A DNA stretch of 57,172 bases from Lentisphaeria bacterium. Its GTDB lineage: Bacteria; Verrucomicrobiota; Lentisphaeria; JABSQK01; JAWLHB01. The stretch is from the NCBI GenBank assembly GCA_041690595.1, contig JAWLHB010000050.1, positions 1 through 57,172 on the forward strand, given 5' to 3'. This document shows, one piece after another, positions 42,359 to 52,574 of this stretch (positions are counted from its first letter, which is position 1; each line of letters opens with the position of its first letter). The position numbers and the translations under genes were made by a program. The notes under the pieces are model-generated. The model did no database searches, was not told where the DNA came from, and was given only the letters and a program-made list of their open reading frames with translations.

Positions 42359-43792
42359 TCAATCGGCCACGTTTTCGCCAAAAAGCTCCAGGACAGTCCG
42401 TTCGGCATTGGCCACGCAGCCGGGGATCCCGATGCCGCGATACGCGCTTCCGGTAAGGTGTAGGCCCGGCACCTCCGCGGCCAGCGCTTCCATGCGCGCC
42501 ACCCGCTCCAGATGCCCCACATCGTACTGCGGATTGCCGCGCGGCCAGCGATAGATGCGGACAACATCCGGTTCCCCCCGTATCCCCAGGATATCACGCA
42601 GCTCCCCCCGCACCGCCTGCAGCATCTCCGCATCATTCAGCTCCGCGATCTCTTCCTGTGCATACCCACCCACAAAGAAGCGCAGCAGCAGCTTCTCCTC
42701 CGGTGCGCGATGGGGAAACTTGTTGCTGTTGATGGTGCATGCCATCACCTGGTGGTCTTCCTTATTCGCCACGATAAAGCCCAGCCCATCCAGATGATGC
42801 GCATCCTGCAACTGCTCGCGCCTGAAGGCAAGCGAGACCGTCGCCGTCGAAATGTAACGAATCGTCCCCAGCAGCTCGCTCAACCGCGGCAGGAATGGCT
42901 CCACCAGCTCCGCCGTGTTGAAGGCAGGAAGCGCCAGCACCACCGCGTCGGCTCGCAACGGCTCTCCCTGCGATACCTCCACGTCAAAGCCCCCAGCCTG
43001 CCCAAGCGGGGACAGACGCGTCACCCTGACTCCCGGCCGCAGATCCCCCCCAAGCTGCTTCTCCAGCGCATCTACCAACTGCGCGAGCCCGCCGCGCAAG
43101 GTGAGAAAGGGCGACGGCGGCGGTGCGCCCGGTTTGGTTCCCGCGGCCGCGGCACGCGCCAGGCGCTGTCGGCGCATCTCGCGCACCGCCTTGATGAGGC
43201 TGCCGTGCTTCTGTTCCATGTCCAGAAAGTGTGGAAACGCCCCCTCCATGCTCAGCTTCTCGGGATCTGCCACGAAAATCCCCGCCATCAACGGACCCGC
43301 GATCCGATCGAGCACCTCCTGCCCCACCCGGCGCCGAATGAAGTCAGCCAGACTCTCGTCATGACGCTCCGCGGGCGCCGCAATAAAGGGCTCCATCGCC
43401 ATCCGCAGCTTCCCCGTGAGCGAAAAAAGCGGACTGCGCGCAAAGGCCACCAGATTGCCTGGAACCGCAAGGTAGAATCCCGGCGGCATCGCCCGCAGCT
43501 TCCCCCGGTAGAGCACGTAAACAGGACGATGGTTCAGCCCGGTCAGCTGATCCCCCAGCCCAAGATCGCGACAGAGCTGCGTGCCAGCCGGCTTCTGCGT
43601 CACAAATGAGTCGGGCCCCCCTTCGATGATCAGGTCATCGACACGCTCCGTAACGATTTTGCCTCCCAGCCGCGGAGAGGCCTCCAGAAGCGTGTAGCGC
43701 CAGGCCTGCCCGCGCGCCTTCGCCTGCTTTTCCAGATGCCAGGCAGTCGCCAGGCCGGCAATTCCTCCTCCCACGATCACCGCATGCTTCAT
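42359..43792 (-). CDS. hemY: Protoporphyrinogen/coproporphyrinogen oxidase (HemY type)
   Basis: IVGGGIAGL FAD motif, EGGPDSF, PQYDVGH and GIGIPGCV. Confidence 0.93.
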   Translation of the reverse strand: MKHAVIVGGGIAGLATAWHLEKQAKARGQAWRYTLLEASPRLGGKIVTERVDDLIIEGGPDSFVTQKPAGTQLCRDLGLGDQLTGLNHRPVYVLYRGKLRAMPPGFYLAVPGNLVAFARSPLFSLTGKLRMAMEPFIAAPAERHDESLADFIRRRVGQEVLDRIAGPLMAGIFVADPEKLSMEGAFPHFLDMEQKHGSLIKAVREMRRQRLARAAAAGTKPGAPPPSPFLTLRGGLAQLVDALEKQLGGDLRPGVRVTRLSPLGQAGGFDVEVSQGEPLRADAVVLALPAFNTAELVEPFLPRLSELLGTIRYISTATVSLAFRREQLQDAHHLDGLGFIVANKEDHQVMACTINSNKFPHRAPEEKLLLRFFVGGYAQEEIAELNDAEMLQAVRGELRDILGIRGEPDVVRIYRWPRGNPQYDVGHLERVARMEALAAEVPGLHLTGSAYRGIGIPGCVANAERTVLELFGENVAD

Positions 43793-43795
43793 ACC

Positions 43796-44722
43796 TCAAT
43801 CTCCTTCAACCGCGAGCAACGCATCGGCGATGGCCCTCAGGAACAAGGGCCGCGTATTCATCATCGGCACCCGCTCGAAGGCGACTCCATGCGATTCAGC
43901 CAACGCACGCGTCTCAATATCCAGATCGTAGAGGACTTCCAGGTGGTCGCACACAAAGCCGATCGGCATGGAGACCAGCTGCCGGACACCCTCTGCCGCC
44001 AGCCGTGGCACCACCTCCTTGATGTCCGGCCCCAGCCATTCACCGCCGGAAGCCCCCGCGCTCTGCCACGCAAAGCTCCATTCGATCCCCCCCACGGCCT
44101 CGGCGATAGCGGCCGCATTGGCCAGCAATTCCTCCTCGTAGGGATCGTCCTCGCGCATCCGCTGGCGGGGAAGGCTGTGCGCACTGAAAATCACCTGCCG
44201 GCGCTCGTCCGCCGACGTACGACTCAGACTCTCCCGCAGCGCCTCCGCCTGGCCCTGGATCAGCGCCGGTTGCCGCGACCAGCCATCTACCCAGCGCACC
44301 TCCAGAACCCCATCGAGCTGGCTCAACCCTTCGCCGACGGCCCGCACATAAAGGTCAAAGGTGAGAAAGCAGCGATGCGGCGCCAGGATCAGCGCAATCG
44401 CCTCCTCCACCCCATCCTGGCGCATCTGTTCCAGCGCCGTCGCAATCCGGGGCTGCCAGTGCCGCATGCCCACATAGACCGGCCACTCCCGCCCGCGTCG
44501 CGCCAGTTCATCCGCTGTACCCGCGGCCTGCGCCTGCGTCAACCCGGTGAGCGGCGAACGGCCGCCAATTGCTTCATAGCGGTGCCGAAGCTCCTCGAGC
44601 AGAGCCTGATCGAAGGGGCGGCCGCGGCGCACATCCAGCAAGTACTCCGGCAGATCCTCCGGCGAATCCGGCGTCCCGTAGGCCAGCAGCAAGACCCCAC
44701 GCTTTCGGTTCGGCTGGCTCAT
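43796..44722 (-). CDS. hemH: Ferrochelatase
   Basis: LLLAYGTP, IGGRSPL, GMRHW, FSAHSLP, WLGP and GFVCDHLEVLYDLD. Start MSQPNRK overlaps the hemE stop. Confidence 0.93.
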   Translation of the reverse strand: MSQPNRKRGVLLLAYGTPDSPEDLPEYLLDVRRGRPFDQALLEELRHRYEAIGGRSPLTGLTQAQAAGTADELARRGREWPVYVGMRHWQPRIATALEQMRQDGVEEAIALILAPHRCFLTFDLYVRAVGEGLSQLDGVLEVRWVDGWSRQPALIQGQAEALRESLSRTSADERRQVIFSAHSLPRQRMREDDPYEEELLANAAAIAEAVGGIEWSFAWQSAGASGGEWLGPDIKEVVPRLAAEGVRQLVSMPIGFVCDHLEVLYDLDIETRALAESHGVAFERVPMMNTRPLFLRAIADALLAVEGD

Positions 44723-45780
44723 GCCTCCTCCGTCGCTGACGGCGCGCCCGCATAGCGATGCACGAAATCGACGAGTACCTGCGCATGCTCCGGCGGCGTT
44801 TCCTTGTAGATCCCATGGCCCAGATTGAAGATGTGCCCCGTCCGCCCGCGGACGCCGTCCAGCACCCGCGCGGCCTGACGCTCGATCACCGCCGGCGTCG
44901 CCAGCAGCACCTGCGGGTCCAGATTCCCCTGTACCGCCACCGCTCCCACCTGCGACCACGCGACACTTAGATCGATCCGCCAGTCGACGCCGATCACGTC
45001 CGCGCCAAGCTCGCCGATCAGCGGCAGGATCCCCGCCGTATCCGTCCCGAAATAGATGATCGGCACCTGCTGCCCACCCCCATTTCGCGCGATATTGATC
45101 GCTCGCCGCGTATGCGGCAACACGTATTCCCGATAGTCGCAGGGGCTGAGAATGCCCGCCCACGAGTCGAAAATCTGCAGCGCCTGCGCTCCCGCCTCCA
45201 CCTGCGCTCGCAGGTAATCGCCCACCGCCTTGGCCAGCTTGTCCATCAACTGGTACCACGCTTTGGGCTCCGTGTGCATGAAGCGCTTCGCCTTCTTGTA
45301 ATCCTTCGATCCGCCGCCCTCGATTGCATAGCTGGCCAGCGTAAAAGGCGCCCCGGAAAAGCCGATTACCGGCACCGTGCCATTCAGTTCCCGCCGCACC
45401 ATGCGCAAGGTATCCAGTGTAAAGGAAAGAGTCTCCACGGGATCCGGTGCCGCCAGCGCCCCTACATCCGCCGGCGAATCGATCGGATGCGGAATGCTAG
45501 GTCCATCCCCCTTCACGAAGAGAACCTCCAGCCCCATCGCACCCAGCAGAGGCAGAATGTCCGCAAAGACGATGGCCGCATCCAGCTCGAATCGCCGAAT
45601 CGGCTGAATCGTCACTTCCGTCGCCAACTCCGGCGTCTTCACCATCGTCAGAAAATCATGTTTCTCCCGCAAGGCGCGGTATTCCGGCAGATAACGCCCC
45701 GCCTGCCGCATCATCCAAACAGGCGTGGTATCCACCACTTCACGACGGCAGGCTTTCAAAAATCGATCAGCTCTGGACAC
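44719..45780 (-). CDS. hemE: Uroporphyrinogen decarboxylase
   Basis: PVWMMRQAGRYLPEYR, GFSGAPFTLASY, QIFDSW, VQGNLDP and HIFNLGHGI. Probable GTG start at 45780 after GGAG; the longer listed ORF runs into the repeat array. Confidence 0.95.
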   Translation of the reverse strand: MSRADRFLKACRREVVDTTPVWMMRQAGRYLPEYRALREKHDFLTMVKTPELATEVTIQPIRRFELDAAIVFADILPLLGAMGLEVLFVKGDGPSIPHPIDSPADVGALAAPDPVETLSFTLDTLRMVRRELNGTVPVIGFSGAPFTLASYAIEGGGSKDYKKAKRFMHTEPKAWYQLMDKLAKAVGDYLRAQVEAGAQALQIFDSWAGILSPCDYREYVLPHTRRAINIARNGGGQQVPIIYFGTDTAGILPLIGELGADVIGVDWRIDLSVAWSQVGAVAVQGNLDPQVLLATPAVIERQAARVLDGVRGRTGHIFNLGHGIYKETPPEHAQVLVDFVHRYAGAPSATEEA

Positions 45781-46003
45781 GGTGACTCTCCGGTTGCGGA
45801 TGCGGCTCGTAACGCTGTGAAAGAGGCCCAAAACATAGCTTCTGCAAGACACTTTTGCGACCCCAAGCCAGAAAAAACCGACCAGCCTGCCCTCTTGCCG
45901 CTCGTGTCGCAATATGGCAAGTGATACCGGCTCCAGCCGTCCCGAACCGCGCGCCCCAGGAAAATCGCGGTCCATTCCTCGTTTCTCGGAACGTTCGGCC
46001 CCT

Positions 46004-46558
46004 GAAAACATCGGTCGAAAGGTCGGTACCCCCCGTGAACGCCACTCGCCTGAGTGGCTCCTCGTACCTGCAGACCGAAAACATCGGTCGAAAGGTCGGT
46101 ACCAAAGCGCTTCCCTCCCTGGGAACGCCTGTGCGTGTAGACCCGAAAACATCGGTCGAAAGGTCGGTACCAGAGCGCCTCCCGCCCTGGGAACGCCACT
46201 CGCCCTGAGTGCCTCCTCGTGCGCGCAGACCCGAAAACATCGGTCGAAAGGTCGGTACCAAAGCGCTTCCCGCCCTGGGAACGACTGTGCGTGCAGACCG
46301 AAAACATCGGTCGAAAGGTCGGTACCAAAGCGCTTCCCGCCCTGGGAACGACTGTGCGTGCAGACCGAAAACATCGGTCGAAAGGTCGGTACCAAAGCGC
46401 TTCCCGCCCTGGGAACGCCTGTGCGTGCAGACCGAAAACATCGGTCGAAAGGTCGGTACCAAAGTGCTTCCCTCCCTGCGAACGCCACTCGCCTGAGTGC
46501 CTCCTCGTGCGCGCAGACCGAAAACATCGGTCCAAAACCATGGACCAAAGGTCGGTCC
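46004..46558. repeat. Structured tandem repeat array, 8 units (67-88 bp period) with invariant core GAAAACATCGGTCGAAAGGTCGGTACC
   Basis: Cores start at 46004, 46077, 46145, 46233, 46300, 46367, 46434 and 46520 (the last is degenerate). The linkers are related to each other, not unique. Confidence 0.95.
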
Positions 46559-46652
46559 ACGGAACGTCCGCCCCCCGAAGGATTGCCCCCATCCTGTCCA
46601 TGTCATACCGACCCCACTTCCTAAGAAAAAAACATACGAAAAAATTCCGTCT

Positions 46653-46680
46653 AATATATCCCCTATAACCCAAACGTCAA
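46653..46680 (-). promoter_or_regulatory. Candidate sigma-70 promoter facing the repeat array and the hem operon
   Basis: Minus strand TTGACG (46680-46675), 16-nt spacer, TATATT (46658-46653), inside an AT-rich patch at about 46620-46700. Confidence 0.5.
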
Positions 46681-46827
46681 GCCATATTCAGTAAATTTTC
46701 GGCACTCTCTCCTTGGCCTTCGCCTTCGCCCTCGCCTCCCTCGCGCCCCATTCCATGCTTCCCCTTCTTCCCATTCCTGCCGCCCGCCGATCCTCCCCTT
46801 AATCCGCGTCCCCCTGTCCCCCATACC

Positions 46828-46866
46828 TTGTCGGGATCTGGAGATCGGATCTCCAGATCCCGACAA
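46828..46866. repeat. Perfect 19-bp inverted repeat (REP-like palindrome)
   Basis: TTGTCGGGATCTGGAGATC-G-GATCTCCAGATCCCGACAA. Confidence 0.9.
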
Positions 46867-46933
46867 AGAGCAATGAGGGGTCTGGGGAGGTGCGCCTCCC
46901 CAGCGGGGTCCGGGGCAGCGCCCCGCCGATCGT
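46863..46933. repeat. 71-bp double-hairpin dispersed repeat, copy 1
   Basis: Matches 52474-52544 except for one base; hairpins CTGGGGAGG-TGCG-CCTCCCCAG and CGGGGC-AGC-GCCCCG. Confidence 0.9.
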
Positions 46934-46968
46934 CCTCGCGTCCCCGCGTCGCCGCGTCTGCGCCTTTC

Positions 46969-47940
46969 CTACCCCCACAAATCGGTGCTCAGGTACTTGA
47001 GTCCCGAGTCGCAGATCAGGATCGCGATTGTCCCTCCCGCGCAGGGCCCCCGCAGCAACTGCAGCGCCGCCATCAGGTTCGCCCCGGAGCTGAAACCGCC
47101 GAAGATCCCCTCTTCCGCCGCCAGCCGCCGTGCGCCCGCGATAGCATCCGCGTCACTCACGCGCAGAAAGCCGTCGACATGCTCCCGATCCACCAACGGC
47201 AGCTCCTCGAAAGCCATGGAATAACCGCCGCCCTGGATCCGGTGATTGGGATCCTGCACTGCTCCTTCCGAGAGGATAGCCGCCCTCGCCGGCTCGACAA
47301 CATAACAGCGGATCGCCGGATTCTGCTCCTTGAATGCCGCCGCGCATCCCGCGAAAGATCCACCCGTACCCGCAAAGTCGCAGAACCCCGTAATGCATCC
47401 CCCACTCTGCTCCAGGATCTCCCGCCCCGTCCCCAGATAGTGGGAATTGTAGTTGCCGCGGAGCGTGAACTGGTTGGCCCGGAAGCCCTTTCGCTCCGTC
47501 ACCAGCCGTTGCGCAACCTTCTCCACCTCCGCCAGATCGCCGCCGGATACCTGTCCCGGCGTCGACTCGGCCAATTGATCCACCAGGATCACTTCCGCCC
47601 CCAGCGCCGCCATCATCCGCGCCCGCTCCCGCGAATTGCCTTTCGACATCACCGCCACAAAGGGATACCCCTTGATCGCGCAGACGATCGCCAGCCCCGT
47701 CCCTGTGTTCCCGCTGGTCAACTCCACCACCGTCTGTCCCGGCGTCAGCGCACCATCCGCTTCTGCCTCCTCGACCATCTGCAGCGCGATGCGATCCTTC
47801 TTCGAGAAGCCGGGATTGAGGTACTCCAGCTTCGCCAGTATCCGCCCATCCACGCCCTGCGTGATGCGCGCCAACTCCACCAGCGGCGTGTTGCCGATCA
47901 CCTCCAACGCGGAGTTCAGGATTCCTCGCTCTCTACTCAT
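46969..47940 (-). CDS. PLP-dependent cysteine synthase-family protein
   Basis: IGNTPLV, KLEYLNPGFSKKDR, TSGNTG, GTGG, HRIQGGG, GFSSGAN and DSGLKYLS; start MSRERG after GAGGG. Confidence 0.9.
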   Translation of the reverse strand: MSRERGILNSALEVIGNTPLVELARITQGVDGRILAKLEYLNPGFSKKDRIALQMVEEAEADGALTPGQTVVELTSGNTGTGLAIVCAIKGYPFVAVMSKGNSRERARMMAALGAEVILVDQLAESTPGQVSGGDLAEVEKVAQRLVTERKGFRANQFTLRGNYNSHYLGTGREILEQSGGCITGFCDFAGTGGSFAGCAAAFKEQNPAIRCYVVEPARAAILSEGAVQDPNHRIQGGGYSMAFEELPLVDREHVDGFLRVSDADAIAGARRLAAEEGIFGGFSSGANLMAALQLLRGPCAGGTIAILICDSGLKYLSTDLWG

Positions 47941-52473: not shown

Positions 52474-52544
52474 ACAAAGAGCAATGAGGGGTCTGGGGAG
52501 GTGCGCCTCCCCAGCGGGGTTCGGGGCAGCGCCCCGCCGATCGT
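52474..52544. repeat. 71-bp double-hairpin dispersed repeat, copy 2
   Basis: Near-identical to 46863-46933; lies between the convergent sanA-like and tgt genes. Confidence 0.9.
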
Positions 52545-52574
52545 GCCCGCCACCCCGCGTCTCCACTCACCCAA

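Follow-up and report, generated by a model that had tools for sequence, protein, structure and literature searches.

A repeat array upstream of hemE in a Lentisphaeria bacterium is very probably a phage-derived small-terminase cassette that has lost its gene

Introduction

Bacillus PBSX and the capsid-forming PICIs (cf-PICIs) are repressor-controlled, domesticated or head-only packaging systems that occupy single contiguous loci, the cf-PICIs carrying an integrase and packaging themselves. Non-autonomous elements of the MITE type form deletion series, in which the ends are kept and the gene between them is lost stepwise. GTAs, as characterised in PMC11841831, are split over loci and carry a TerS without DNA-binding domain beside TerL, and the Bartonella BaGTA is described there as served by run-off replication from a stand-alone prophage origin. 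The same source reports that known GTAs need no pac sites, and names the choice of DNA by GTAs and GTA recognition outside the alphaproteobacteria as open questions. In phages, TerS confers packaging specificity, and the pac site of P22 is described as an asymmetric sequence inside terS (PMC9611059). As for small dispersed repeats, tandem amplification of REPs together with flanking DNA is on record (PMC3733652, PMC3333891), the motifs NHLH, YIHQNP and a downstream SS are given as the signature of TnpA-REP subclass 2.6, whose REPs are described as atypical (PMC6006769), and an orientation that follows replication has been published for IS200/IS605 elements (PMC3971601).

Here we analyse a window of 57,172 nt, the whole of contig C50 (JAWLHB010000050.1) of a Lentisphaeria genome, in which a promoter-led repeat array lies upstream of hemE. 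The assembly comprises 8.1 Mb in 99 contigs (C-numbers below), with 61.5% GC and 97% completeness. A look through sequencing runs gave four DNA runs of one study, with small shares, and no RNA run. Genes beyond the window were called with a self-trained caller, giving 5,483 genes at 88% coverage. Many repeat arrays reach contig ends or N gaps, and all counts of arrays and cassettes are lower bounds. We are highly confident that the array belongs to a family of promoter-plus-repeat cassettes that goes back to a phage small-terminase gene, and that this copy has no such gene left. That its motif B acts as a directional, pac-like packaging site of a dispersed GTA-like system is a predicted function, which we put at even chances, and we judge the full statement, cassette origin and packaging role together, to be evenly balanced as well.

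Results

A first-pass annotation, made from the letters of the window, had described eight hairpin-bearing repeat units behind a promoter. All eight cores were recovered, starting at 46004, 46077, 46145, 46233, 46300, 46367, 46434 and 46520, with the same spacings of 73, 68, 88, 67, 67, 67 and 86 bp. Units 1 to 7 match the 30-nt core of unit 1 at 93-100%, and unit 8, which bears a third, degenerate half-unit, at 70%. The core has 57 matches in the genome at ≤6 mismatches, versus none for three shuffled cores, a repetition far beyond chance. The two hairpins ascribed to most units are present, the GACCGA hairpin being imperfect in units 1, 3 and 4, and the TTCCC-GCCCT-GGGAA hairpin is confined to this locus (5 matches, 1 locus in the genome). 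Likewise, similar 19-mers flank the array on the plus strand (45988..46006 and 46561..46579; 16/19 identical), the left one being a linker module also found at a few other cassettes. The array sequence contains no N. Across its left edge, a related-strain contig matches over 151 nt with a single difference, and a second contig carries an extra 13-nt half-unit at 46230; none of the pieces listed spans the whole array, and the number of units is that of this assembly.

Each unit proved to be a mosaic of two dispersed modules, A (a REP) and B. On the minus strand, the tandem array (45988..46579) consists of eight such units, each with a B doublet, a linker and a REP or REP stub, making it a candidate TerS-recognition (pac-like) array. 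The promoter, here called P* (46653..46682, minus strand), is of sigma-70 type with a 16-bp spacer (-35 TTGACG at 46680-46675, -10 TATATT at 46658-46653; matrix score 41.3). As annotated, it points through the array, and it is the only promoter-like site in 45700-47100, where shuffles expect 0.2. An operator-like TTGAC-N6-GTTAT (46665..46680, minus strand; ideal form ATAAC-N6-GTTAT) overlaps the -35 box, and an AT-rich, UP-element-like stretch lies upstream of it (46683..46700, minus strand), as it does, by eye, at most P* copies. Between P* and the first B, a short leader (46580..46652, minus strand) takes the position that terS holds in full cassettes, with no terS remnant detected in it by blastn. 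The genes hemE, hemH and hemY (42359..45783, minus strand), whose identities score above NCBIfam cut-offs, are incidental downstream neighbours.

Module A, CTGG-G[CA]AC-GCCACTC-GCCT-GAGTGGC, occurs in 181 copies at ≤4 differences, 133 of them exact, and is extragenic, with 1 of 81 loci inside a called gene. Within the array it accounts for the additional hairpin CACTC-GCC(C)T-GAGTG annotated in units 1, 3 and 7, all on the plus strand: unit 1 (46033..46058) with its top strand on plus and a degenerate tag, unit 3 (46187..46213) with CTGG tag, 4-nt spacer and stem-loop, and unit 7 (46476..46501) with a whole copy. Units 2, 4, 5 and 6 hold REP A stubs (plus strand, within 46119..46423; at 46119, 46275, 46342 and 46409), which keep tag and spacer, have the hairpin deleted and yield the short 67-68 nt unit type. 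The two unit types noted earlier are therefore explained by whole REPs versus hairpin-less stubs.

A Y1 protein at C26:500-1108 scores 88.4 on NF047646 (REP-associated tyrosine transposase; cut-off 80), bears NHLH, YIHQNP and a downstream SS, and has outward-facing REP A on both sides, the REPtron arrangement. Module A is thus the REP of a resident subclass-2.6 RAYT. Among 26 homologous RAYT loci examined (27 of 30 fetched, minus the own locus), seven show CTGG, 4 nt and then a different, fully paired stem. A RAYT scan of the named genomes gave one weak match. As far as REP/BIME systems with TnpA-REP of subclass 2.6 (RAYT group 5) are described in PMC6006769, PMC3333891 and PMC3733652, REP A resembles them in its extragenic tag plus hairpin, the outward flanking of the RAYT, the 2.6 signature and arrays built by tandem amplification; it differs in having the tag CTGG with a 4-nt spacer in place of the canonical GT[AG]G, and in standing head-to-tail (90 of 93 neighbour pairs <400 bp) rather than in the inverted doublets of BIMEs and REPINs. 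CTGG-type REPs may already be listed in Table S1 of PMC6006769. Repeat pairs 700 nt apart flanking a cognate gene were considered and rejected, since they were longer repeat mosaics. The Y1 genes at C11:187754-188044 and C2:34068-34412 are each flanked by a repeat family of their own, in the first case a GTGG-tagged REP and in the second long hairpins on either side of an IS200-like protein. No obvious repeats accompany a fourth Y1 protein, on C61, and at L040 (G310:C1 near 3073830) a RAYT homolog is split by tandem copies of its own REP.

The head-to-tail arrangement of REP A makes its orientation readable. Relative to neighbouring genes there is little preference (12 same, 17 opposite), and adjacent loci agree with each other in 33 of 38 cases. 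REP A lies on the strand with T>A at four-fold sites at 67 of 79 loci, and at 39 of 41 in strongly polar contigs. Its strand is also that of a polar octamer, GGGTGGGG, at 45 of the 48 loci that could be assessed and, away from cassettes, at 31 of 34. The octamer, which we take to be KOPS-like, occurs 221 versus 51 times inside genes, and was derived from T-A-oriented contigs, which makes the two polarity markers partly dependent on each other. On C10 the octamer changes direction, which may mark a terminus. Because the matches to rpoBC, EF-Tu, groEL and gyrB lie on the octamer strand, this was taken as the leading strand; two other motif matches lie opposite. By the octamer, five other repeat classes have no such polarity, and neither tRNAs (18:19) nor total gene length (49%) pointed to any polarity. 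REP A orientation thus follows replication (45:3), matching the IS200/IS605 rule and what the lagging-strand-template model for Y1 enzymes predicts. The window contig may be an exception: its polarity is ambiguous, with a T-A z of -2.8 that stems from a single 8-kb bin and octamers reading + + - -. REP A is present in 13 of 20 head-on cassettes versus 1 of 10 co-directional ones, the latter being the hemE array.

A matrix built from the hemE-array promoter (consensus gCTTGACTTTTGaGTTAT-N6-TATnnT) found 47 genome copies of P*, that promoter among them. The core positions are invariant in 43/43 top copies, and six spacer positions vary freely. In the first 5 kb downstream of P*, 93% of gene length is co-oriented with it. 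Among 34 co-oriented downstream genes, the 20 scanned have no common function; they include regulators, a kinase, a CTP synthase, a glycosidase and an M50 protease, and 5/20 have no family at E 1e-8. Upstream flanks are unrelated by eye, and no terminal inverted repeats were seen there.

Motif B is an asymmetric 12-mer with consensus GACCGAGG[T/A]TTT on the P* strand. We counted 497 B-like sites in sense orientation and 9 in antisense; they usually form doublets, 175 of 203 short spacings being 12 nt. Coupling of B to P* is close: B follows on the same strand downstream of 45 of 47 P* copies and precedes only 2, and at least two B lie within 2 kb downstream of 43/47 P* versus 1/371 other TTGAC..TAnnnT promoters. 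Conversely, P* is present at 41 of 51 multi-copy B loci, and five of the other ten lie within ~800 nt of a contig end. At C3:76433, a variant promoter with an operator-like site precedes a B array and was missed by the matrix; the cassettes probably number above 45. Linkers, lengths and copy numbers vary between loci, and B is conserved in sequence, not in pairing. REP A is absent within 600 nt at 24 of 51 multi-copy B loci. The 16-nt B pattern was found in 0 of 150 class genomes, and P* and B patterns had no match in the viral contigs searched.

The origin of the cassette is indicated by 15 P* copies that are followed, 76-92 nt on, by a common reading-frame start, that of terS. Six of these encode a whole TerS core of ~210 aa with a repeat-built tail, and nine are truncated; B follows terS in 14 of the 15. 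Another 31 P* copies, the hemE one included, run into B after 35-351 nt without terS, and the leaders of 29 of these 31 are not alignable to terS. The family thus forms a deletion series of whole, truncated and missing terS with both ends kept, and the hemE locus is, with high probability, a terS-less member of a chromosome-wide cassette family in which P* is followed by an optional terS and a directional B array. The deletion series resembles that of MITEs, except that what was lost encodes a terminase subunit instead of a transposase, and that no upstream terminal inverted repeats were seen.

PF03592 (TerS) has 14 matches reaching the cut-off in this genome, 0-1 in each of 30 relatives and no more than 3 in any one of 400 phylum genomes, for each of which only ~10 candidates were scored. 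Among the six whole paralogs, dN/dS is 0.09-0.50, pointing to purifying selection. The predicted fold is SF6 TerS-like with a DNA-binding domain (pLDDT 79, pTM 0.44), and in the PDB the model's top four matches are all to SF6 TerS or its DNA-binding domain, at E values from 1e-3 to 5e-2. The TerS tails are full of otherwise unrelated genomic repeats. A divergent terS on C12, about 33% identical and with a P*-like promoter, contains, in frame, seven 12-nt repeats with 11 nt in common with the hemE-array core. In metagenome and viral contigs and protein searches, no close TerS homologs were found beyond the genome's own copies; in the profile search, six top matches fit the own copies by length and are followed by generic TerS at 1e-15 or weaker.

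Like a pac site, B is asymmetric, directional and located inside or beside terS. B is absent from the short terS of a related phage contig, L269, and has no match in viral contigs; descent of B from an inherited pac site is therefore unsupported. The 12-nt spacing of the doublets fits a relic coding repeat equally well.

Pfam and PHROGs searches identified phage modules elsewhere in the genome, and those on C2, C4, C12 and C20 lie between host genes. A head module (C4:105.9-113.6 kb: scaffold, capsid, small genes, lipase, portal) has a P*-like promoter ahead of it. In a repressor/terminase module (C2:166.9-170.2 kb), the gene of a CI-like repressor stands divergent to a 131-aa gene, which is accompanied by an HTH-less terS and by terL; the TerS beside TerL is 109 aa long, aligns with Pfam positions 55-130 of 141 and scores below the family cut-off. 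A replication module (C20:83.0-84.6 kb) encodes a DnaD-like initiator, with internal repeats and an AT-rich tract, and a DnaC-like loader; the internal repeat differs from B, so that B does not qualify as its iteron. A search for tyrosine integrases (PF00589) found none on contigs C2, C4, C12 and C20. A three-gene operon at C54:11219-14132 (L139; 121, 288 and 540 aa) stands behind an operator-like promoter, and is possibly a tail-tip module of the dispersed system; it has no family match and is not identifiable as phage.

The -35 region of P* reads TTGAC-N6-GTTAT, and the sole perfect ATAAC-N6-GTTAT in 8.1 Mb precedes the head cluster, with one-mismatch copies before the terL operon and the initiator. 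There are 22 palindrome sites at ≤1 mismatch, 13 of them outside called genes, and three of those precede the head, terL and initiator modules. Outside P*, the loose operator pattern is not enriched (11 sites versus 4-19 in shuffles). We infer that the palindrome is a putative binding site of the CI-like repressor encoded beside terL. No SOS box was found in the 233 nt upstream of a recA-motif gene.

The dispersed modules include no full tape measure and no baseplate J, and no lysis enzyme was identified in them. A separate, intact-looking prophage at C5:50000-105000 has its own terminase, portal, tape measure and serine-recombinase-like gene (labels by eye); it holds the sole tape-measure match in the genome, shows low skew and has no operator. 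Because tape measure, baseplate J and lysis enzyme are lacking and a separate intact prophage is present, particles of the dispersed system may be defective. On L269, orthologs of 11 dispersed-module genes stand in one block, with a normal short terS, and a 746-aa gene, by our reading a probable tape measure, precedes the p282 homolog; the corresponding gene here has 96 aa. A metagenome contig, L140, encodes a capsid 73% identical to that of the head cluster. Its first gene is a shortened scaffold preceded by a tandem repeat, and the perfect palindrome stands before the capsid gene. In that gene (L140:393-1810), four-fold sites carry C in 146 cases and G in 2, which suggests that the same extreme skew exists in the organism behind L140. 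Searches of 30 relatives and 400 phylum genomes gave no match to the capsid, and TerL has three distant matches in 350 class genomes; the studied genome is the only member of its family among the genomes listed. With the capsid undetected in these genomes, vertical inheritance rests on one 1.8-kb contig.

The genome is further marked by local G/C-skew domains. Across 474 windows of 10 kb, the G-C skew at four-fold sites, corrected for gene strand, has an sd of 0.24 versus ~0.02 from sampling; in a common pipeline, four relatives gave an sd of 0.03-0.09 versus 0.12-0.14 for four own contigs (54-140 kb each). Skew in the domains reaches about 0.8, is independent of gene strand and shows gradients and sharp jumps that the T-A skew does not follow; within the window, values change from +0.25 at 16-24 kb to -0.57 at 48-56 kb. 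In the surroundings of P*, G prevails on the sense strand from ~30 kb upstream onwards; the skew is highest, at +0.43, immediately downstream of the promoter, reaches zero at about 12 kb and is negative beyond. Because equal-skew controls have a similar, flatter profile, only the link to orientation is strong: judged by four-fold sites, 33 of 36 cassettes have a G-rich sense strand downstream and 38 of 42 have one upstream, and in 33 of 34 cassette-bearing domains the cassette points the G-rich way. Most domains (99 of 133) are cassette-free. In terS itself, ~80% of four-fold sites are G. A reading of the jumps as many replication origins was rejected, upward jumps exceeding downward ones only modestly, at 33:15 (threshold 0.5) and 119:105 (0.3), and T-A skew and the polar octamer being constant along contigs. 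Transcription from P* as sole source of the skew was also rejected, the head cluster behind its P*-like promoter being C-rich on the sense strand. The skew domains are not accounted for by packaging.

Discussion

In the mechanism that we propose, the head, terL and replication modules would be one domesticated GTA-like system under the CI-like repressor. Induction would relieve repression at all operators, the scattered HTH-bearing TerS proteins would bind B arrays and recruit TerL, and headful packaging of host DNA would begin at the cassettes, in one direction, from about one site per 180 kb. A cassette would be self-copying in that it travels with the DNA packaged from it. At the hemE locus, REP A of the resident RAYT invaded the array and local tandem amplification produced the 67-88 nt units; hemE would be a passenger. 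An extended form of this mechanism has a phage turned into a site-programmed gene transfer system, with one head/terminase/replication set, one repressor, ~45 oriented packaging-start cassettes and a history long enough for strand-specific G/C-skew domains of tens of kb to have been stamped into host genes; we hold it to be doubtful. Much the same tentative standing applies to its further claim that the DNA-binding domain was stripped from the terL-side TerS while some cassettes still supply a DNA-binding TerS.

A selfish or relic cassette, the chief alternative, in which P*-terS-B spread by other means, terS was lost and B is a slippage-prone coding repeat of the TerS tail, would explain the 12-nt B spacing, the TerS tails full of unrelated genomic repeats, the downstream genes without common function, the gathering of all repeat types in the same skewed regions and the 99 of 133 skew domains without cassette. 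It would leave the arrays as REP-invaded debris, P* being perhaps co-opted for downstream genes. Set against it are the 31 terS-less cassettes that still hold P* and B in order and orientation although the intervening DNA is unalignable to terS in 29, the P* core that is invariant in 43/43 copies beside a freely varying spacer, and the purifying selection on whole terS copies; we regard this origin, and the debris view of the arrays with it, as rather unlikely. B arrays might instead be loading sites for a repurposed TerS or phage initiator that acts on the chromosome and generates the skew domains. The G-rich sense strand on both sides of the cassettes, the 33 of 34 oriented domains, the G-richness of terS, the weaker skew domains in relatives and the presence of a stand-alone phage origin module all speak for such loading, but the internal repeats of the initiator are unlike B, T-A skew and the polar octamer keep their direction along most contigs, against many active origins, and most skew domains lack a cassette, and we give it little credence.

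The first-pass annotation had left a choice between a transcribed multi-hairpin RNA, among them a leader of the heme operon, and an iterated protein-binding array, having set CRISPR aside, rightly, as the linkers are copies of each other and no unique spacers are present. A repressor-controlled RNA family, whose multi-B transcripts act as protein sponges or antitermination leaders on induction of the phage regulon, has in its favour the conserved promoter that points through every array, the 93% co-oriented gene length, a minus-strand RNA that folds somewhat better than shuffles (z -2.3) and a possible CCGA/UYGG stem with G-U on that strand. Yet the opposite strand folds better still (z -3.9), linkers, lengths and copy numbers differ between loci, and no covariation was found. 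Among distinct B sites with an intact 5' arm, four Watson-Crick pairs form in only 16 of 169 and at most two in 41, as against four pairs in 2 of 37 sites with a changed 5' arm, and C-to-T changes are expected anyway on a C-poor strand. Rfam (E up to 1) gave two chance miRNA matches outside the array, far below gathering scores, and none to the array. A structured repeat ncRNA is thus not supported, and we think the RNA family improbable. Nor is a dedicated heme leader supported, since the promoter and motif unit stands ~45 times ahead of unrelated genes and no array was found upstream of hemE at 16 loci (16 of 30 relatives with hemE, one with only 234 nt upstream), where three short two-copy 14-mers are the only repeats; the array DNA was not found in the 30 relatives either. 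As an ordinary REP/BIME cluster the array would likewise be explained in part: by blastn it matches ~100 places in the genome and so is not unique, one of its modules is a genuine REP, served by a cognate RAYT, and REPs are known to amplify in tandem (PMC3733652, PMC3333891). However, REP A covers only part of each unit and is missing at nearly half of the multi-copy B loci, and promoter and B derive from the terS cassette; the coupling of P* and B to terS largely refutes both a plain REP cluster and a heme-specific leader, and that the array is nothing more than one of these is very improbable indeed. Of the two options in the annotation, the protein-binding array is the better one, here as a candidate binding array.

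Returning to the proposed packaging system, we find it alike to RcGTA, DsGTA and BaGTA, as these are described in PMC11841831 and PMC9662315, in having head and terminase genes over several loci, a separate prophage-type origin and an HTH-less TerS beside TerL, and unlike them in its 7 full-length HTH-bearing terS, ~45 oriented cis-cassettes and the lack of any normal-size tail among the genes found. At the level of genes, the features shared with GTAs are capsid, scaffold, portal, TerL and TerS, their spread over several loci and the HTH-less terL-side TerS. Since a GTA is also defined by particles that carry host DNA, have no room for their own genes and deliver DNA, and by vertical inheritance with the host, we speak of a putative GTA-like system with candidate pac sites, known from its genes, and do not file it as a GTA. 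With the pac sites of P22 and SPP1/SF6, as given in PMC9611059, PMC12829572 and PMC10996546, B shares an asymmetric, directional site inside an SF6-fold terS. Pseudo-pac sites are, in these accounts, chance look-alikes, whereas the cassettes are amplified and have their own promoter; lateral transduction starts in an integrated phage or PICI, whereas the cassettes lie away from any prophage. Unlike PBSX and cf-PICIs, the system is dispersed over loci. In the literature searched, which covers subscription journals thinly, we found no description of scattered terS/pac cassettes, of REP orientation by replichore or of such skew domains. Candidate start sites, direction, binding protein and repressor site can all be read from the genome and give exact predictions for particle sequencing. 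The very strong local skew domains tied to cassette direction, and the orientation of REP A with replication, stand as results of their own.

Further repeats are present in the window. Dispersed repeats at 46828-46946 and 52474-52563 include a perfect 19-bp inverted repeat and a G-rich element that is translated in TerS tails too, and at the contig end (55300-57050) a larger mosaic of 9-nt CGTCCACTT tandems and REP-like hairpins surrounds a small minus-strand reading frame. Elsewhere, the region C22:19500-32000 contains a 9.5-kb stretch without called genes and a P* cassette at its edge. The genes beside it look to us like those of type I-C Cas7 and Cas8c, and the gene-free stretch is probably a real CRISPR array.
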